Origin: a virus
Taxonomy: Duplodnaviria > Heunggongvirae > Uroviricota > Caudoviricetes
Length of the DNA: 7,678 nt
Strand: one strand, 5' to 3'
Virus record (IMG/VR): IMGVR_UViG_3300029417_000062
Span: 1 to 7,678 of that record
Shown: in pieces, positions 1 through 7,678 of the stretch
Layout: every line of letters starts with the position of its first letter
Numbering within the stretch: the first letter of the stretch is position 1
The notes under the pieces: model-generated
Seen by the model: the letters and a program-made list of their open reading frames with translations, nothing else
What the model was told of the DNA's origin: nothing
Databases searched by the model: none
Made by a program: the position numbers and the translations under genes

Positions 1-505
1 GCTTAAGCTCCGGATACATGGCGTTAACTTCTGGCATTTTCATCAACGCTTCAACGATATGTCCGTCGAATGTTGCCATGTCTTCCTGCAACAATTCCTG
101 TGCGCTAATAACCATATCAACGGTGATGTTTTCACATGTGTCGAACTTAACCATGACAGCGTTCTGTACTTCAGGGGCCAGCTTGTCAAAAGTGACGTTC
201 ATCGGATCGGATTCAGTCTCAACCGGGACAAAAGAAGCAGACTCCTCATCCCAGCGGTTTTCCTGCATATATTCAGCATCCCATGAATCGAGGGCAGGGC
301 GGGGTATGCCAGGTTTATCCTCGCAGACAATAAATTTATAAGCGCAGTCCTGAGCAGCCGGATAATGTTCCAGGAATTGCCAGTGAAATTTTGCTCGAGC
401 ACGGCGTTCGTCGCCAGCTTCAATGGCTGTGGCTACAGCCACAGCGCCTTCTTCCCTTGTTGCCAGTTCGTCAGGAATAGCGGCGCAAATAAAGACTTTA
501 CTCAT
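1..505 (-). CDS. Hypothetical prophage protein, partial (168 codons in window; gene runs off the window start). Sits where ydfE lies downstream of ydfD in the Qin dicB operon.
   Basis: Minus-strand ATG at 505..503 (MSKVFICAAIPDELATREEG...), preceded by GAGG about 10 nt upstream. Frame stays open to position 1 with no stop. Acidic, protein-like composition. The ydfE assignment is by position only, from memory. Confidence 0.6.
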   Translation of the reverse strand, partial: MSKVFICAAIPDELATREEGAVAVATAIEAGDERRARAKFHWQFLEHYPAAQDCAYKFIVCEDKPGIPRPALDSWDAEYMQENRWDEESASFVPVETESDPMNVTFDKLAPEVQNAVMVKFDTCENITVDMVISAQELLQEDMATFDGHIVEALMKMPEVNAMYPELK

Positions 506-598
506 TTTGTTTTAACCTCATGACAGATTTAAGGATGAACAAATCCCTGCCATTGCTGGCATATAAGAATGAAACCGGATATTTATTACGGAACTGTT

Positions 599-790
599 TT
601 AAAGACCTGCCGGGATTTCGATATTATACTGGTGAATAACTTTATCGACCGGGTAACAGTTACCGGGAATTTTCTGTTCGGTTGCTGCAGTCATACACTC
701 CTGCATTGTCCTGTGAACACTGACTGCAATATCAACTGGCTCTCCGGAAACAAGAAAAACTGTCAGAACAAGCGCAAATGCTGAATTCAT
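599..790 (-). CDS. ydfD: YdfD-like small protein (63 aa) with N-terminal hydrophobic segment; prophage lysis/toxic membrane protein
   Basis: ATG at 790..788 overlaps the dicB stop (789..787) in an ATGA arrangement. Product MNSAFALVLTVFLVSGEPVD... has a signal/TM-like N-terminus. Length and position match my memory of Qin YdfD. The six-frame track shows a longer ORF (599..844) whose upstream extension lies inside dicB. Confidence 0.75.
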   Translation of the reverse strand: MNSAFALVLTVFLVSGEPVDIAVSVHRTMQECMTAATEQKIPGNCYPVDKVIHQYNIEIPAGL

Positions 791-975
791 TGTGCACATC
801 CTTTTGGCATCAGACGTAAACGAGCCAGCATTGAAACAATGCATATTTTATTTAATAGCTCCCGTTCTTGTTTTCTCTTGTTAATGGCATCTTCAGTAAA
901 TACAGGGTTACTGATAGTGACACCAATTTCAAAACAACCTTCAGACGTATTAACGTTTGGTAATAACGTTTTCAT
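787..975 (-). CDS. dicB: DicB cell-division inhibitor (62 aa; acts through MinC in K-12)
   Basis: ATG at 975..973 with GAGGA 7 nt upstream. Product MKTLLPNVNTSEGCFEIGVTISNPVFTEDAINKRKQERELLNKICIVSMLARLRLMPKGCAQ matches my recollection of DicB in length and sequence. Lies downstream of dicF and upstream of ydfD as in Qin. Confidence 0.8.
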   Translation of the reverse strand: MKTLLPNVNTSEGCFEIGVTISNPVFTEDAINKRKQERELLNKICIVSMLARLRLMPKGCAQ

Positions 976-1145
976 TATCGCGTCCTCAACAATGAATTTT
1001 GTGATGCAGTGCCTGGTGCCTCCAGGTGACGTTAACCAGTTAACAATTAACGCCGGATACAGAGAATCCACCCATAACACTGTTTTTGGTTTTAACTGTT
1101 CCGCGTGCGCTTAGCCGCATTCACCGCATCACAAAATTCACTTTA

Positions 1146-1203
1146 AAAACGGCGGCAGAGCAGTCACGGAGTAAAACTGATACCGCCAAACGTCACCAGA
1201 AAA
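1146..1203 (-). ncRNA. dicF: DicF small RNA (53-nt core 1203..1151 plus U-tract)
   Basis: Reverse complement of 1151..1203 reads TTTCTGGTGACGTTTGGCGGTATCAGTTTTACTCCGTGACTGCTCTGCCGCC, followed by GTTTTT. This matches the DicF sequence as I remember it, including the GGCGG...CCGCC terminator stem. Position between the ydfB/C region and dicB is the canonical one. Confidence 0.85.
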
Positions 1204-1461
1204 TTGATAACAGAGGGCGTTGCAGCGGGGTTGTCGCTTAAGCGTATGGTCAACCTGACAACTCGGTGTCCTCAACGGGGAAGGAATAACCCCGCCATAC
1301 TTACCGCCGCGCCATTTCGCGGGTTGCCACAACCGGAAGCGCACGGTCGAATTAAATTTGACGACACCGTACAGTGAGACGAACTTCGCCGTGCGCTTTC
1401 GTGTTGTGTGCCTGCTTTTAACCACGTCAGGCGAGGTGGTATCCTTAAAATCACCACAGTT

Positions 1462-2037
1462 TTAAGGATTCATTAAGCAATGTCGCAACCACCAATAAAT
1501 CCGCTTAAGAACATGAAAATTGATTACTGGTATAAAGCGCTTACAGTTGTTGGCGCTGCGTTGTTTGTCTTTAATGGAACGTCTTTTTTTGACAGATATC
1601 CCGTTGTTCCATTGGTTTTTTTGTCCTCCGGCATCTTTTTTATTGGTTTGGGGGAGTGGATTAATCACCCTCTCAAAGTGAGATTTATTGGTCCTGGAGT
1701 TTGGACTCGTGGATATAATCGTTCTTCGTGCGCACTCGGTATCATCTTCGACATACTTGGTTGTTTCCTGATTGTTACAGGAGTCGTCAAGTTCTTCTGA
1801 TGTAAAACCGCAAATGGGGCACGTAACGGGAATTTTGAAAAGCGTTTCTCCGGGTTCCAGAACAAAATTTTCTGCGGTCTGATTTTGCTTCTCATATTTG
1901 TGCTCCGCGTCATTGTGAGAGCGCATTCTTATTCTGAGTGCCTGTTTAAACTCACTGAAGCTGAGAGCTTCTTCGCCTTCGGCAAGGCCTTCGAAGTATT
2001 CTTCGTAAGCCTTTTCCATGATTGTGTCGAAATCCAT
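1462..2037 (-). CDS. Hypothetical protein, 191 aa; acidic N-terminal region with a YdfB-like start and a CPxCG motif. The C-terminal half is low-complexity and may be read-through.
   Basis: ATG at 2037..2035 with AGGTGA 5 nt upstream, one nt after the ydfA stop (tight coupling). The first ~85 residues look like real protein (MDFDTIMEKAYEEYFEGLAEGEEALSFSEFKQALRIRMRS...PVTCPICGF). Residues after ~90 are N/K/R/S-rich and lie codon-aligned antisense to the plus ORF 1480..1800, so part of this ORF may be an antisense artefact. In K-12 this interval is annotated as two short genes (ydfB, ydfC). Confidence 0.5.
   Translation of the reverse strand: MDFDTIMEKAYEEYFEGLAEGEEALSFSEFKQALRIRMRSHNDAEHKYEKQNQTAENFVLEPGETLFKIPVTCPICGFTSEELDDSCNNQETTKYVEDDTECARRTIISTSPNSRTNKSHFERVINPLPQTNKKDAGGQKNQWNNGISVKKRRSIKDKQRSANNCKRFIPVINFHVLKRIYWWLRHCLMNP
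1480..1800 (+). CDS. Candidate small membrane protein (106 aa, about 3 predicted TM helices), encoded antisense to the 3' half of the 191-aa minus ORF
   Basis: ATG at 1480 with AAGGA 11 nt upstream. Three clean hydrophobic segments (ALTVVGAALFVF, VVPLVFLSSGIFFIGLG, CALGIIFDILGCFLIVTGVV). Its codons are exactly aligned with the opposite-strand ORF, so one of the two is probably spurious. Confidence 0.3.
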   Translation: MSQPPINPLKNMKIDYWYKALTVVGAALFVFNGTSFFDRYPVVPLVFLSSGIFFIGLGEWINHPLKVRFIGPGVWTRGYNRSSCALGIIFDILGCFLIVTGVVKFF

Positions 2038-2038
2038 A

Positions 2039-2194
2039 TCACTCACCTGAGTTTCTTTCCAGCCAGCGACGGGCACCATTTTCGGTTTTAAACGTTTTGC
2101 TTTTGGTATACGTCATTGCGGTGAACGTGCCGTCCTGGTTTGGAAACACGCCGTACACCAGAGATTCGTTGTTGCCAAGATCGATAGTATCCAT
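2039..2194 (-). CDS. ydfA: YdfA-like small protein (51 aa), first gene of the DicA-repressed leftward operon
   Basis: ATG at 2194..2192 with GAGG 5 nt upstream. Product MDTIDLGNNESLVYGVFPNQDGTFTAMTYTKSKTFKTENGARRWLERNSGE. Length and position next to dicA match Qin ydfA from memory. The track ORF 2039..2350 extends upstream through the promoter region and is not credible beyond this ATG. Confidence 0.75.
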   Translation of the reverse strand: MDTIDLGNNESLVYGVFPNQDGTFTAMTYTKSKTFKTENGARRWLERNSGE

Positions 2195-2270
2195 GCTGAC
2201 CTCATTTCCCCTTAACGCCGGGGTAGCGGAACTGTTTGCTGAGAACACCGTGCGGTGTGTTGATGGAGGT

Positions 2271-2348
2271 AATTTAGTTTTCTCATTATTTTTCGTCAAG
2301 GCTTTTTGATGAGAAAACTCAAGTATTGGCGCAAGATAAAGCCAATAC
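2271..2348 (-). promoter_or_regulatory. Candidate leftward (dicB-operon) promoter with operator-like inverted repeats
   Basis: On the minus strand: -35 TTGACG (2299..2294), 17-bp spacer, -10 TAAATT (2276..2271). A perfect 10-bp inverted repeat AGTTTTCTCA (2276-2285) / TGAGAAAACT (2310-2319) straddles the -35. A second 8-bp inverted repeat GTATTGGC (2323-2330) / GCCAATAC (2341-2348) lies beside it. Confidence 0.4.
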
Positions 2349-2386
2349 ATTGAAATGTAAGGCTTTAAAATTTTGTGAAGGGATGA

Positions 2387-2794
2387 TTATTGATGCTTGT
2401 TGCGTTTGCGAGCCTCTAATAGCTCGGTGAACAGGCGATTAAAATTCTCAACGCGGGCGCGGAGTTCGCTGAGTTGTGCTTGTTGCTCTGATTTAGGAAG
2501 TGCGCGATACAAACGCAGCATCTCTAACTCATCTTCCGATAAGTCTAAGGCACTATCGAGTGAAACAGGGGGAGCTGGTGTTTTGTCCTCGTCGCCAAAC
2601 AGTATCCAGGTTGGTGAACATTGCAATACCTCGGCGAGGCGATGCAAATTTTGCCCGCGCGGGGCTGTATGGTCACTTTCCCATAATGAAATTGATGAGC
2701 CAGATACGCCAGCAGCTTTGCTTAAACCGTTTTGACTTAAACCTACCTGCTTACGTCTTTCTCTAATGCGTTGACCTAAAGTTTTCTCGTTCAT
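2387..2794 (-). CDS. dicA: DicA-like HTH (XRE-family) prophage repressor, 135 aa
   Basis: Product MNEKTLGQRIRERRKQVGLSQNGLSKAAGVSGSSISLWE...VLQCSPTWILFGDEDK... has an N-terminal HTH and the VLQCSPTWILFGDEDK block I recall from DicA. Divergent from the Cro-like gene. Start chosen at ATG 2794..2792 (135 aa); the track ORF uses an ATG 17 codons upstream (2845), which lies in the operator region. Confidence 0.9.
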   Translation of the reverse strand: MNEKTLGQRIRERRKQVGLSQNGLSKAAGVSGSSISLWESDHTAPRGQNLHRLAEVLQCSPTWILFGDEDKTPAPPVSLDSALDLSEDELEMLRLYRALPKSEQQAQLSELRARVENFNRLFTELLEARKRNKHQ

Positions 2795-2871
2795 ATTTAG
2801 ATATCTTAATAACCCTTGACTTGAGATTCCTTGAGTGATTAGCATTGAGAAAACTCAATACTGGAGGTGCG
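2795..2871. promoter_or_regulatory. Divergent dicA/dicC control region (immunity switch) with operator-like repeats and a candidate rightward promoter
   Basis: -35 TTGACT (2816-2821), 18-bp spacer, -10 TAGCAT (2840-2845). Operator-like TTGAGAAAACTCAATACTGG at 2845-2864, and TTGAG repeated at 2821, 2831 and 2845. SD GGAGG at 2863-2867 precedes the dicC ATG at 2872. No evident SD for dicA. Confidence 0.5.
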
Positions 2872-3099
2872 ATGTTTAAATCAGACGTAATTAATTTTTA
2901 CGGTACGAAAGCCAAAGTAGCGAAAGCTGCTGGCGTTGACCCATCTGCTGTTTCTCAATGGCAAGAGCTGGTTCCTGAAGGTCGCGCGATGCGTCTACAG
3001 GAGGCATCTGGCGGCGAGCTTCTGTATGATCCCAAGGTTTATGACGAATATCGTAAGACGAAGCGGGCGGGGCGGTTGAACAATGAAAATCACTCCTGA
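2872..3099 (+). CDS. dicC: DicC-like (Cro-type) small DNA-binding regulator, 75 aa
   Basis: ATG at 2872 with GGAGG 4 nt upstream. Product MFKSDVINFYGTKAKVAKAAGVDPSAVSQWQELVPEGRAMRLQEASGGELLYDPKVYDEYRKTKRAGRLNNENHS; the C-terminal half matches my recollection of DicC. Divergent from the repressor. The track ORF starts at TTG 2845, inside the operator, which is unlikely. Confidence 0.85.
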   Translation: MFKSDVINFYGTKAKVAKAAGVDPSAVSQWQELVPEGRAMRLQEASGGELLYDPKVYDEYRKTKRAGRLNNENHS

Positions 3100-3604
3100 A
3101 CAGGCTCGTGAGGCTCTGGATGCCTGGATATGTCGACCAGGAATGACACAGGAGCAGGCGACGATATTAATCACTGAAGCATTCTGGGCTTTGAAAGAGC
3201 GCCCGAACATCGATGTTCAGCGTGTCACAGATGAAGGTGGCGCGGTTGATCAGCGAGCGCTTGGCGTTAATCGAGTGAAGATATTCGAACGCTGGAAGGC
3301 TATCGACACCAGGGATAAGCGTGAAAAGTTCACGGCGCTAGTGCCTGCAATTATGGAGGCTATCCGGATTAATGATTTCAGGTTGTATCGTGAAATTAGT
3401 GACGGAAAAAGCATCACGTACATGATCGCCGGGTTAAACAAAGAATATGGCGATGTGGTGGAGTCCGGACTGCTTTTTGCTGATCCTGCCGTAGTGGATC
3501 GTGAAACTGACGAACTTATAGAAAAAGCAATTGCTTTCAAACTTGCGTATCGACAGCAATACCAACAAAAAGCTGGATGGAATTATGAGCCTTCTTTTTG
3601 CTGA
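3083..3604 (+). CDS. YdaT-family prophage protein (173 aa), second gene of the rightward immunity/replication operon
   Basis: ATG at 3083 overlaps the dicC 3' end by 17 nt. Position after the Cro-like gene and the motif ...FTALVPAIMEAI... resemble Rac YdaT (from memory). Confidence 0.75.
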   Translation: MKITPEQAREALDAWICRPGMTQEQATILITEAFWALKERPNIDVQRVTDEGGAVDQRALGVNRVKIFERWKAIDTRDKREKFTALVPAIMEAIRINDFRLYREISDGKSITYMIAGLNKEYGDVVESGLLFADPAVVDRETDELIEKAIAFKLAYRQQYQQKAGWNYEPSFC

Positions 3605-4550
3605 ACGCCCACTGGTTATAAACACACAGCTTGCGATGAAGATTGGCTTAAATGAAGCCATTGTGTTGCAGCAGTTGCATTACTGGTTGAGAGATACCAA
3701 TTCCGGCATGGAATGTGATGGTGTTCGCTGGATTTACAACACAACGGAACAATGGCTGGAACAGTTCCCATTCTGGTCAGAGTCAACGTTAAAGCGCGCG
3801 TTTGCAAGTCTGAAAACGCTGGGGCTTTTGCGTTGTGAAAAGCTCAATAAATCAAAGCGCGATATGACCAATTTCTACACGATTAACTATGGAAGCGAGC
3901 TTTTAGATGATGGCAAATTGAGCGAATCCATCGGTTCAAAATGCGCCGCTCCATCAGGTCAAAATGACACGATGGAAGAGGTCAAAATGAAACGCTCCAT
4001 TGGTTCAAAACGACCCAATGTCATCGGGTCAAAATGGCCCGATGATCCTACAGAGAATACAACAGAGATTACTACAGAGAATAAAAACACTTTTCGTCCG
4101 GAAGCTTCGCAACCGGACCCGCAGACGGCTGAACAGGATTTTTTAATCCGGCACCCTGGCGCAGTTGTGTTTAGTGCGAAAAAACGCCAGTGGGGTAGCC
4201 AGGAGGATCTGGCGTGTGCGCAGTGGATATGGGGGCGGATCGTGGGTCTCTACGAACAGGCCGCCAGTGATGATGGCGAGATCATGCGACCAAAAGAGCC
4301 TAACTGGACTGTCTGGGCCAATGATGTGCGCACAATGCGGATGCTGGATGGCAGAAGCCACAGACAAATTTGTGAAATGTTTGGTCGGGTACAGCGGGAT
4401 CCATTCTGGGTAAAAAACATCATGAGCCCGTCAAAGCTCCGCGAAAAATGGGACGAACTGGTCATCCGCCTGGGGCGTTCACCTGTACAGCGTTGTGTTA
4501 ATCATATTTCTGAACCGGATACAGAAATTCCGCCTGGTTTCAGAGGATAA
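3585..4550 (+). CDS. Lambda O-like replication initiator (321 aa) with the origin (iterons) inside its coding sequence
   Basis: C-terminal block TVWANDVRTMRMLDGRSHRQICEMFGRVQRDPFWVKNIMSPSKLREKWDELVI resembles the lambda O C-terminus as I recall it (AGWANDIRLMRERDGRNHRDMCVLFRWACQDNFWSGNVLSPAKLRDKWTQLEI). An iteron array sits mid-gene. Start ambiguous: ATG 3585 (chosen, overlaps the ydaT end) versus TTG 3531 used by the track. Confidence 0.85.
   Translation: MSLLFAERPLVINTQLAMKIGLNEAIVLQQLHYWLRDTNSGMECDGVRWIYNTTEQWLEQFPFWSESTLKRAFASLKTLGLLRCEKLNKSKRDMTNFYTINYGSELLDDGKLSESIGSKCAAPSGQNDTMEEVKMKRSIGSKRPNVIGSKWPDDPTENTTEITTENKNTFRPEASQPDPQTAEQDFLIRHPGAVVFSAKKRQWGSQEDLACAQWIWGRIVGLYEQAASDDGEIMRPKEPNWTVWANDVRTMRMLDGRSHRQICEMFGRVQRDPFWVKNIMSPSKLREKWDELVIRLGRSPVQRCVNHISEPDTEIPPGFRG
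3928..4096. repeat. Candidate phage replication origin: five direct iterons (about 22-25 bp period) followed by an A-rich tract
   Basis: Units start near 3928, 3951, 3974, 3997 and 4021, with core GGT(T)CAAAA(T/C)G, similar to the TCAAAACG core of lambda ori iterons. Followed by a purine/A-rich tract 4047-4096 (ACAGAGAATACAACAGAGATTACTACAGAGAATAAAAACAC). Confidence 0.6.
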
Positions 4551-4590
4551 GTTTTGATTTCAGGTCATGAGGTAATTTTAAGGGGGACTT

Positions 4591-4992
4591 GTGGCAAAAG
4601 TTTTTACACAAGAAGAGCGGGAAAAAATTAAAGGGCAGGTGGTGGAACTCGTGCGCCAGAGCGGTCGTGAGACGTTACGGCAACTGGAAGCTAAAACAGG
4701 TGCGACTAGATATCTGATGAGCGTTCTTGCCAGAGAGCTGGTAGCCAGTGGCGATGTATACAACTCCGGCTACGGGTTATTCCCGTCTGAACAGGCGCGT
4801 AAGGACTGGCAAAACGCCCGCAAAAAACTCTCGAGGGCAAAGGTGAAGAAAACAGCTGTGGTTGATCCGGACCTTATCTGGTCGTTACCTGATGGAGAAA
4901 TACGTCGCTACGACAGTCGCCTAAACATAATCTGTCGCGAGTGCCGGATGAGTGAAGTTATGCAGCGCATACTGGCATTTTATCAGGGATAA
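4591..4992 (+). CDS. Hypothetical protein, 133 aa, possible HTH/winged-helix; occupies the position where a helicase loader (P/DnaC-like) would be expected
   Basis: GTG start at 4591 with AGGGGG 4 nt upstream. Coherent protein-like ORF (MAKVFTQEEREKIKGQVVELVRQSGRETLRQLEAKTGATRYLMSVLARELV...). No similarity to lambda P that I can recognise. Confidence 0.6.
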   Translation: MAKVFTQEEREKIKGQVVELVRQSGRETLRQLEAKTGATRYLMSVLARELVASGDVYNSGYGLFPSEQARKDWQNARKKLSRAKVKKTAVVDPDLIWSLPDGEIRRYDSRLNIICRECRMSEVMQRILAFYQG

Positions 4993-5088
4993 TGTTAGGT
5001 ATTTTAGACGTTACTAGATTAAAAAGCATTAGTTCAGGAGTGAATTGACATTCTCATTTTTCATGGCACAGGGTAGATCTGGCGTGGT

Positions 5089-5114
5089 TGTCCGCTTTGT
5101 GCCAAAAGCGGACA
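5089..5114. terminator. Hairpin between convergent genes; possible bidirectional terminator
   Basis: Perfect 10-bp stem TGTCCGCTTT (5089-5098) / AAAGCGGACA (5105-5114) with a 6-nt loop. Flanking U-tracts are weak on both strands, so terminator function is uncertain. Confidence 0.3.
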
Positions 5115-5210
5115 TCGAATAATTTCAGCAGCACTCAACCTTATTAACCAAATCGCCTCAACTCATATGGACATGCATCCGGAAGTGCCAACTTCGTAAA
5201 CTTATTCACT

Positions 5211-6591
5211 TTAAGTCTGAGCCTCACTCTCTTGGCCATAAGTGGCTTGCCAGTATCTCGCCGTAGGGTTCATTAGAATGTGCAATACAAGCCACCATGC
5301 AAAAATGCAGGGAGGTTGATTGTAGTAACCGGCAGGCACATATCCGTGAGCTAGTTGATTTCGTAAATCACCATAGATTTTATCTACCAGTAAGGCCTGA
5401 AGATTGCCAATTATGTCTACGCCGAAAGCTTCAATAATCAGTGGATTATCTAGTAATCCCTTGAGTCCATTTCGCTCTTGCGAACCGTCCCCGTGAAGCT
5501 GCGATGGTTCCTCACCTTTAATTTTAGCCACATATCTCAGACTATTTTCGATCTGGGGAATCAACACGTGGCATGCCGTCATAAAATCTCCATTGAAACC
5601 GCAAACCATACCCTTGATGAAAAACTCTTCATGCCCAAACGGGATGAAGGGATGATTGATGAACATATCGCGAAAAAACGCCTCCGAGATTGGATATTTC
5701 ATTGTGATCTCATCTGTAGCAGGAATAATTTGCCCAGCTACTGCCAACTCATGGTCGATACGCATTCTCGTCATCATTATGGGCCAAATAACTGCCCCAT
5801 TTGCATCATCAATCCCCAATCCTGCGGGTATGCGAGCAAGTGTCATTCCCTCATGATCAATATGTGTTGATCCAAACATCCAAGCTATGCTGTTGGCCTT
5901 TTGTTCTATTGCTTGAGCCTTAAGTCTCTCAATGCTGGTTGGCCGACAGACCAGCATCGCAAGTCTGAAAACCATATCAAACATATCTCTTCCGACTACC
6001 CGACTCTTGGCTTGATGGACAATCTCACTAATATCTTGAGGGGGAGACTGAAGGATAGACATCTGGTGACGGGATTCGATTTGGTAATCACGCATTTCTT
6101 CATACAGCGCAAGACGTTCTATTCGGGTTCCTGGAATATTAGCCAGTGCTTCAATAGCATTCTGCATGCAGGCTGCCGAAATCATACCGCCATCTTGGAA
6201 TTTTGACTCTTCCAGATGTGTATCGGCAAGAAGCCGCCAGAATTCAAACTGTGTATCTCTGTCACAGCACCTATTCGCAATCGTGATTGCGGTTTTACAG
6301 GCATCGACGGCAAATGAAAATAATTTTTGAGCCAGATAGTTTTTTGTCAGAAACAGGAGTTCCTGGGCAATAAAAGATGGCTCACTCACTTTACAGTCGA
6401 TATCGAGTTGCAGGAGTCGCAGCGGATAAGGTGAATCGCCTTGTTCTCTGGTACGTTCATACTCTGCTAGTAGATGTGCCGAAAGCTGATCAAATTCATC
6501 CCTGAAATCAGTATTCTTTCGAAAAAAACAACACAGCCTAAGCGCACGCTCTAGGCGTTCTAAAGCACTAACCCACGTCCCTTGCGATGTC
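5211..6591 (-). CDS. C-terminal portion (about 460 codons) of a large protein with a HEPN-like Rx4HxY motif; 5' end interrupted by the IS. Candidate abortive-infection/toxin RNase.
   Basis: Continuous minus-strand ORF ending at 5211. RNQLAHGY is encoded at 5340..5363 (R 5361-5363, H 5346-5348), about 45 residues from the C-terminus, and fits the HEPN Rx4-6H / HepT-type Rx4HxY signature. The six-frame ORF (5211..6776, 521 aa) takes its first 61 codons from IS sequence. No in-frame ATG occurs in the first ~136 native codons, so the native N-terminus is missing. Confidence 0.6.
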
Positions 6592-6633
6592 TGAACCGCC
6601 CCGGGTTTCCTGGAGAGTGTTTTATCTGTGAAC
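6592..6633. repeat. IS terminal inverted repeat region (orfB-proximal end)
   Basis: Begins with 5'-TG and lies immediately beyond the orfB stop (6634), as expected for an IS3-family end. The other end is outside the window, so the pairing cannot be confirmed. Confidence 0.5.
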
Positions 6634-7524
6634 TCAGGCTGCCAGATCATCGTTTCCGATGGAAGCATAATAAGCTTTTTCTGCTTCTGCCGGAGGAGTA
6701 TGGCCCAGCCTTTCCAGCAATCGTCGATTGTTATACCAGTCCACCCACGTGAGTGTGGCCAGTTCCACTTCTGCACGGTTTTTCCAGCTCTTACGGTGTA
6801 TTACCTCCGCTTTGTAAAGACCATTGATGCTCTCCGCCATCGCGTTGTCATACGAGTCGCCTGTACTTCCTGTTGATGCCAGTAATCCGGCTTCCTTAAG
6901 CCGCTGTGTGTAGGCCAGCGATACATACTGAGAACCTTTATCACTGTGATGGACCGTGCCGGACGGTCGACGGGCCCATAACGCCTGCTCCAGTGCATCC
7001 AGCACGAATGTCGTTTCCATGGACGATGAGACCCGCCACCCCACGATGTATCCGGCAAACACATCAATGATGAACGCCACATAGACGAAGCCCCGCCATG
7101 TGCTGACGTAAGTAAAATCAGCCACCCACAGCTGGTCAGGTCGTTCTGCCACGAACTGACGGTTTACGCGGTCGCCTGCGGCAACGGCTTTCCGGCTGAT
7201 GGTCGTACGGACCTTTTTACCCCGGAGAACACCGGCAAGTCCCATAACCGCCATGAGACGTGCCACAGTGCATCTGGCCACTCTGATACCTTCCCGTAAC
7301 AACTGACGCCAGACTTTACGCACACCGTATACCTTGTGATTTTCATCGTATACGCGCTGTATCTCTTTCTTCAGCCAGTCATCGCGCTGCGCACGGGCAC
7401 TGCGTTTATCCGGATGATGTCGCTGTTGCTGACAGTGGTAATACGTTGACGGGGCAATATGCAGTTCGCTGCATAGCGGTCCGACCCCGTACTGCTCACG
7501 CAGCTTATCCAGCAGTGGCATCAT
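6634..7524 (-). CDS. IS3-family transposase OrfB (DDE integrase-like catalytic domain), 296 aa
   Basis: Product [22 protein letters not shown]... contains D (WVADFTYV), D (HHSDKGSQY) and E ([15 protein letters not shown]) motifs. The start overlaps the orfA stop in the -1 frame. Confidence 0.9.
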
Positions 7525-7678
7525 TTTTTCCAGAGGCGGTCGAACTCCGCCTTCGCAAAATAAGCGGAAGCCTGGCGAAGGATATCGTTACTGCGGCGCA
7601 GTTCACGATTTTCACGTTCCAGCTCTTTCAGACGCTGACGTTCAGCGGTGGTGAGCCCGCCATCACCGCCTCCGGTAT
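7521..7678 (-). CDS. IS3-family transposase OrfA, C-terminal 52 codons (partial; 5' end outside window)
   Basis: Minus-strand frame reads ...[51 protein letters not shown] (leucine-zipper-like), stop at 7523..7521, overlapping the orfB ATG (7524..7522). Confidence 0.85.

Follow-up and report, generated by a model that had tools for sequence, protein, structure and literature searches.

Where in its genome does a lambdoid prophage of Escherichia coli begin to replicate, and how is that place recognised? The question is raised here by a stretch of 7,678 nucleotides (nt) from a Caudoviricetes record (IMG/VR record IMGVR_UViG_3300029417_000062, positions 1 to 7,678), which at its full length is called the window in what follows. 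The window derives from a lambdoid E. coli prophage, of which it forms the immunity and replication region; its positions 3500–4600 are 97% identical to phages HannyBb, mEp460_ev081 and PhiR42_1. It includes a gene for a replication initiator of 321 amino acids (aa) (3585–4550, + strand), an open reading frame (ORF) whose start was taken as annotated in phage HannyBb. An earlier note on this DNA had proposed that an iteron-type replication origin is embedded in this gene. Our analysis, which is based on sequence comparison and structure prediction, indicates that the segment 3906–4118, inside the linker-coding part of the initiator gene, is very likely the vegetative replication origin of the prophage.

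The left part of this segment is an array of direct repeats. Five units of 23 nt start at 3929, 3952, 3975, 3998 and 4022, with spacings of 23, 23, 23 and 24 nt and a span of 3929–4044. These are iteron 1 (3929–3951, CATCGGTTCAAAATGCGCCGCTC, core 3937–3943), iteron 2 (3952–3974, CATCAGGTCAAAATGACACGATG, core 3960–3966), iteron 3 (3975–3997, GAAGAGGTCAAAATGAAACGCTC, core 3983–3989), iteron 4 (3998–4020, CATTGGTTCAAAACGACCCAATG, core 4006–4012) and iteron 5 (4022–4044, CATCGGGTCAAAATGGCCCGATG). Every iteron is an internal palindrome of the form rGGT-CAAAATG-ACCy, the best being iteron 5, in which 18 of the 23 positions are self-complementary. Directly upstream and in register with these lies a degenerate additional unit, iteron 0 (3906–3928, GATGATGGCAAATTGAGCGAATC, with the in-register site ATGGCAAATTGAGCG), and relatives such as loci L090, L092 and L093 of the comparative set described below carry a good sixth copy at this position. 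With at most one mismatch allowed, the motif GGTCAAAAYG matches five times in 3934–4036 and once elsewhere, while 1.35 matches are expected in the whole window. Identity at a lag of 23 nt, calculated over 92 nt, is 0.63, well above the background of 200 Markov simulations (0.452 ± 0.015, maximum 0.50). The array is the strongest periodic signal in the window, which has no other repeat array of comparable strength. The five direct repeats of the earlier note are thus borne out, although the spacing is 23–24 nt and not the 22–25 that had been claimed; the sixth, degenerate copy and the palindromic nature of each unit had been missed.

To the right of the iterons follows an A-rich tract of low stability (4048–4094), which is presumed to be a DNA-unwinding element. 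Its presence had been noticed before and its composition can now be given more exactly: it contains three tandem 12-mers ACAGAGAnTAC at 4050–4085 (ACAGAGAATACA, ACAGAGATTACT and ACAGAGAATAAA), also reported by Tandem Repeats Finder as a period of 12. The GC content of the tract is 0.30, compared with 0.47 for the window, and it holds the least stable stretch of 45 base pairs (bp) in the gene (free energy −51.9 versus −63.5 ± 3.9; 99.5th percentile of the window). On its right side the segment ends in an imperfect palindrome, GTCCGG-N11-CCGGAC (4096–4118), read from the sequence, which appears as the counterpart of the palindrome located to the right of the lambda ori AT-rich region.

All of these repeats are also translated, and they could in principle represent no more than a repetitive peptide, a flexible linker of IGSK and TExT units under protein-level selection and without function as DNA. 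The protein indeed reads SIGSK...SIGSK..VIGSK and TENTTEITTENK, and the 12-mers, usually read as T-E-x-T, are in frame in most lineages. However, because 23 is not a multiple of 3, the five iterons fall in frames 2, 1, 0, 2 and 2, that is, in three reading frames, and only three of them encode (S/V)IGSK while the other two encode unrelated peptides. The IGSK-like repetitive peptide of the earlier note therefore holds for three of five copies. In homologs the units occur in every frame, and in several lineages the first copy of the 12-mer lies 11 nt upstream and is read R-D-Y. The use of three reading frames argues for selection on the DNA and not on the peptide. The units are, in addition, DNA palindromes with symmetric covariation (see below). 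Synonymous positions within the 12-mers are almost frozen: among 55 non-identical loci, the ratio of Glu codons GAG:GAA is 124:13 inside the motif versus 501:567 elsewhere in the genes (p 1e-24) and that of Thr codons ACA+ACT:ACC+ACG is 215:7 versus 439:505 (p 6e-52), p-values which overstate independence because the loci are phylogenetically related. The motif is therefore constrained as DNA. Finally, the encoded segment is predicted to be disordered, and in the analogous Rep protein of plasmid pSK41 the ori-encoded central linker is dispensable as protein (PMC5703833). Reading frames, palindromy, synonymous sites and predicted disorder together led us to reject the peptide-repeat explanation, which we regard as extremely improbable; the evidence points to selection acting on the DNA of the repeats.

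The organisation of the protein is in keeping with this. The initiator matches PHROG 391, 'replication initiation O-like' (phrog_391; E 3e-92), and is labelled 'hypothetical protein' in RefSeq; Pfam has no family for it, nor for 26 diverse homologs. In the AlphaFold2 model, the N-terminal domain (aa 1–111; 3585–3917, + strand) shows the topology H-H-E-E-H-H-E-E with predicted local distance difference test (pLDDT) values of 81–94. It is a predicted winged helix-turn-helix (wHTH) and presumably the iteron-binding domain. The repeat-encoded linker (aa 112–179), predicted to be disordered (pLDDT 23–42), separates it from a helical C-terminal domain (4125–4472, + strand; predicted helices within aa 183–296) homologous to the C-terminal domain of lambda O: in BLASTP, initiator aa 147–294 and O aa 135–270 are 34% identical over 148 aa (E 3e-27). 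The six iteron units (3906–4044) cover aa 108–154, between the wHTH domain and the C-domain, with the first main repeat (3929) at codon 116, so that the location proposed for the repeats, within the initiator gene and in the linker between the N- and C-domains, agrees with the structural model.

Repeat conservation in homologous initiator genes had been named beforehand as the point on which the proposal could fail, and conserved repeats were found in relatives. Phages mEp460_4F5, Klebsiella vB_VIPKPNMC05 and Pantoea AH07, whose initiators share 70%, 51% and 39% protein identity with that of the window, have 23-nt repeats in the corresponding position and, behind them, the same 12-mers, with a different iteron core in AH07 (GGGCAAATTGCCC). 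The Klebsiella and Pantoea homologs retain the N-domain, iterons and 12-mers, and a different C-domain of the Phg_2220_C type, also present in 10 of 26 diverse members, begins right after the 12-mers. This module swapping fits the origin model. It could also mean that the 12-mers and the palindrome are mainly a module-junction sequence which promotes homologous recombination of N-domain/iteron modules with different C-domains: the C-domain type (lambda-O-like or Phg_2220_C-type) changes just after the 12-mers, and the 12-mer stretch is the sole part of the gene which megablast still matches in AH07. We judge such a main role to be very unlikely, since the motif is kept between phyla such as Proteobacteria, Firmicutes and Campylobacterota, which are unlikely to have exchanged DNA recently and in which the surrounding sequence has diverged completely, and since the 12-mers occur in tandem, two to five times, in a fixed 11/12-nt register and coincide with the stability minimum. 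Junction and unwinding roles are not mutually exclusive.

The diversity of these loci was explored by scanning with an alignment of the N-domain and retaining one genome per species, which yielded 80 loci; a scan of viral contigs with the single N-domain was useless for covariation because it returned only near-identical E. coli prophages. The 80 loci are from Enterobacterales, Pseudomonas, Acinetobacter, Psychrobacter, Comamonas, Hydrogenimonas, Bacillaceae, Lactobacillaceae, Staphylococcus, Clostridia and others, the N-domain being kept from Enterobacterales to Firmicutes. Using tblastn, it was identified in 139 phage records, including Vibrio, Staphylococcus, Bacillus and Listeria phages, and the initiator is present in 1846 of 5426 complete E. 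coli genomes. In nearly all the proteobacterial loci and several from Firmicutes, the best periodicity directly after the N-domain is 22–24 nt and is carried by three to six palindromes NNNN-CAAWWTG-NNNN. Their arms vary between lineages: GGT/ACC in E. coli, Citrobacter and Xenorhabdus, GGG/CCC or GTG/CAC in Pantoea, Pseudomonas and Acinetobacter, GGA/TCC in Mixta, GAT/ATC in Limosilactobacillus and CGA/TCG in Psychrobacter. In 28 of 31 lineage consensus sequences, the two half-sites have complementary bases next to the core, with all four types of pair in use (T/A in 11, G/C in 11, A/T in 4 and C/G in 2), a value reached in none of 2000 shuffles, a count which again overstates independence because the lineages are related. 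A dimer co-evolving with its site would produce such symmetric covariation. Downstream of the iterons, CAGAGAnTAC repeats (2–5 copies at intervals of 11–12 nt) recur in lineages as far apart as E. coli, Limosilactobacillus, Hydrogenimonas, Paenalcaligenes and Cellulosilyticum. The plan shared by the approximately 80 loci, from Enterobacterales to Lactobacillaceae, is therefore one of three to six palindromes about 23 nt apart, then CAGAGAnTAC repeats and, usually, a palindrome.

A variation on this plan occurs in Limosilactobacillus ingluviei (L143, 1835–1950), where the iterons alternate between the subtypes GGATCAAAATGATCC and GGATCAAATCGATCC with spacings of 22 and 23 nt, giving a 45-nt super-repeat which is 90% self-identical. 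The taxon labels of the 80-locus scan need to be taken with care. Some loci assigned to metagenome-assembled genomes (MAGs) have N-domains 100% identical to that of E. coli (L086, a Veillonella MAG; L087, a Bacillota MAG; L134, a Collinsella MAG), and the N-domains of two loci labelled Nocardioides and Micromonospora (L145 and L147) resemble that of a Staphylococcus caprae locus (L135). These MAG- and actinomycete-labelled loci look like binning or contamination artefacts.

The palindrome on the right also has its equivalents. Following the 12-mers, perfect stems of at least 6 bp are found in 44% of 70 loci compared with 6% of control windows, and their arms covary among relatives (GGTTGC/GCAACC, GGTTTC/GAAACC, GGTTCC/GGAACC, GGCTCA/TGAGCC). 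In two relatives which combine this N-domain with a lambda-like C-domain (L126 and L097), the 12-mers are followed by CGTCCGAGAATTCTGACGAATCCCCGGAC, a near-copy of the lambda ori palindrome CGTCAGAGAATTCTGGCGAATCCTCTGAC, and this links the right-hand half of the family's presumed origin with one that has been mapped. These observations are relevant to another interpretation, in which the repeats would be initiator-binding sites serving mainly in autoregulation or copy control, by transcriptional roadblock or handcuffing, with replication starting elsewhere in the phage. Dyad-symmetric sites which co-evolve with a wHTH domain are indicative of binding sites and not of origin firing, and iterons of plasmids and of lambda have regulatory roles as well (PMC3349717, PMC6090056). 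But a pure operator needs neither the conserved low-stability repeat tract which always follows the sites nor the palindrome which usually does; the right half in L126 and L097 is similar in sequence to the mapped lambda ori, and the array is without a comparable counterpart in the window. We consequently consider a mainly regulatory role very unlikely and favour an origin at 3906–4118.

The arrangement in the window can be compared with several known systems. It shares with lambda ori and the O gene, and with the origins of the Shiga toxin (Stx) phages 933W and P27, which have six iterons, a location in the middle of the initiator gene and four to six dyad-symmetric iterons with a central CAAAAYG and a spacing of about 20–24 bp. 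In lambda, too, the iterons are followed by an A-rich tract; next comes a palindrome, of which the imperfect one in the window may be the equivalent. These three elements are well known from lambdoid origins (PMC7466680). The array begins at codon 116 in the window, and the annotated lambda record places the start of its four ori iterons at codon 117 of O. The lambda iteron is tCCCT-CAAAACG-AGGGa with spacings of 20, 24 and 23; its arms are CCCT/AGGG, those of the window GGT/ACC. The C-domains are related, as described above, and the initiator gene belongs to a cro/cII-like/initiator operon as in lambda. The lambda ori-like organisation which the earlier note had described, iterons followed by an AT-rich region within the initiator gene, is thereby confirmed. 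Its term 'O-like' for the initiator is appropriate for the C-domain but not for the N-domain, for which no similarity to O or to Pfam Phage_rep_O could be detected. Two further differences from lambda are that the A-rich tract of the window is an ordered array of three 12-mers and that the window initiator is not followed by a P gene and has a C-terminal tail resembling that of host DnaT, which is absent from O (see below).

A second comparison is with the RepA_N-type plasmids of Gram-positive bacteria. The rep gene of pSK41 contains four centrally placed Rep boxes, to which the wHTH N-domain of Rep (about 120 aa) binds, and replication proteins of the host are recruited by a host-specific C-domain (PMC5703833). 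The window shares with this system origin repeats located centrally in the initiator gene and encoding the linker, together with a weak N-domain fold resemblance to 4pql and 5kbj. It differs in belonging to a phage, in giving no RepA_N Pfam match and in its C-domain. E. coli oriC and iteron plasmids, RK2 among them, have tandem 13-mers in their DNA-unwinding elements. In these as in the window, tandem AT-rich 11–13-mers adjoin the initiator-binding array at a stability minimum. In contrast to the 13-mers, ACAGAGAnTAC is unrelated in sequence, is located in coding DNA and is kept across phyla; no DnaA box was found near the origin, the sole match with one mismatch being at 5524. From its sequence, the initiator appears to lie outside the O family with respect to its N-domain, because homology of this domain to O was looked for and not detected, and also outside the RepA_N family. 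The best class for the element is that of an iteron origin embedded in its initiator gene, which is of a known kind, with an initiator family lacking a curated name.

A number of points weigh against an origin at 3906–4118 or against parts of this interpretation. In Foldseek, with the full-length model searched against the Protein Data Bank (PDB), the N-domain resembles wHTH regulators and the N-domains of plasmid Rep proteins (4pql, 'N-terminal domain of DNA binding protein', and 5kbj, 'Rep-DNA complex') with a probability of ~1, but the fold matches are statistically weak (E 0.07–0.5) and the wHTH assignment is therefore only supporting evidence. No similarity of the N-domain to lambda O was detected with Pfam PF04492 (Phage_rep_O), NCBIfam or hhalign, the latter giving a probability of 0.1 for a 26-sequence N-domain profile against O aa 1–116, and 'O-like' is for this reason true only of the C-domain. 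With 70% AT, the tract is only moderately AT-rich, and its low stability is matched by several intergenic stretches of the window; the window's own palindrome is imperfect. One frame is shared by 162 of 176 12-mer copies, so that some peptide-level constraint may act on the 12-mers. The relatedness of the loci compared must be added to these. Lastly, our literature search, older subscription-journal reviews excepted, gave no paper on the origin of this initiator family.

The data suggest the following steps for initiation. Dimers of the N-terminal wHTH domain would bind the six palindromic iterons (rGGT-CAAAATG-ACCy). Given a phasing of 23 bp and an A-tract at the centre of each iteron, the array could form a nucleoprotein complex in which the DNA is bent or wrapped, much as in the lambda O-some, and the resulting strain might be released by melting of the adjacent and least stable A-rich ACAGAGAnTAC 12-mers. 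The lambda-O-like C-domain and the DnaT-like tail would then recruit the host helicase-loading machinery.

This tail, RCVNHISEPDTEIPPGFRG, comprises the C-terminal 20 residues of the initiator (aa 302–321; 4488–4547, + strand) and differs little from the final 20 residues of E. coli DnaT. It aligns with DnaT 160–179 in phmmer searches against the DnaT chains 2ru8, 6aep and 9zbt of the PDB and matches positions 160–179 of the NCBIfam DnaT model. Enterobacterial homologs retain a DnaT-like tail irrespective of the type of C-domain, and lambda O, which has P, lacks such an ending. No P-type or DnaC-type loader gene is present directly 3′ of the initiator, either in the window or in the annotation of the intact phage HannyBb; the next gene is a DUF977/Ren-like gene (4591–4992, + strand). 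The resemblance suggests that the initiator recruits a host partner of DnaT through its tail, and this would explain the absence of a loader gene. The tail may thus be a case of mimicry by which the host primosome is hijacked. A 2026 paper on the structure of the preprimosome reports that the C-terminal domain of DnaT docks on PriA; it does not address the role of residues 160–179.

An origin embedded in its initiator gene is in itself an expected arrangement; what the comparisons add is an initiator family which is very common and unnamed and whose origin layout is kept across bacterial phyla. Its N-domain is found in roughly every third complete E. coli genome, and phages of Staphylococcus, Bacillus, Vibrio and Pseudomonas have it as well. 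A more comprehensive reading, which we put forward tentatively and as the less probable outcome, is that the N-domain is the hallmark of a large superfamily of phage initiators that has no name yet, that the CAGAGAnTAC 11/12-mers are a sequence-specific, phylum-spanning element which a conserved part of the initiator recognises in single-stranded or melting form (in the manner of DnaA-trios and plasmid 13-mers) and that in enterobacteria the DnaT tail replaces a P-type loader by way of the host PriA/DnaT primosome route for DnaB loading. The results provide a concrete candidate origin of about 215 bp (3906–4118) for a replication module which is among the commonest in E. coli prophages. They also provide a recognition rule (a wHTH N-domain, then palindromes NNNN-CAAWWTG-NNNN with a period of 23 nt, CAGAGAnTAC repeats and usually a palindrome) with which putative origins can be located in phages from many phyla. 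Symmetric variation of the iteron flanks offers a natural series for the study of initiator–iteron specificity and of phage replicon incompatibility, and the frozen synonymous sites call for caution in codon-based analyses and recoding of such genes.

The initiator gene is preceded by a cI-like repressor gene (2387–2845, − strand), a P22-Cro-like gene (2845–3099, + strand) and a YdaT/CII-like gene (3083–3604, + strand). The end of the latter overlaps the start of the initiator gene by 20 nt, and three database entries (P0002–P0004, 448 aa) in which the two ORFs are fused and which carry PF06254 are probably frameshift or annotation artefacts. A scan of 2700–5300 for promoters and terminators gave nothing notable in the origin region. 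Further to the left, the antisense small RNA DicF is matched over its full length at 1150–1201 (− strand; Rfam, 72.5 bits for a gathering score of 48), from which it follows that, like Qin, the prophage has a cell-division inhibitor locus of the dicBF type. Just past the replication module and on the opposite strand, a gene for a 521-aa protein with a DUF4209 domain (5211–6776, − strand) matches the PADLOC candidate defence family PDC-S39 (E 1e-81) and adjoins an insertion sequence, which suggests an inserted defence 'moron'. The insertion sequence itself, represented by an IS3-family transposase ORF of 296 aa with an ALIL frameshift pseudoknot upstream (7450–7566, 120 bits), interrupts the prophage at 6634–7566 (− strand).

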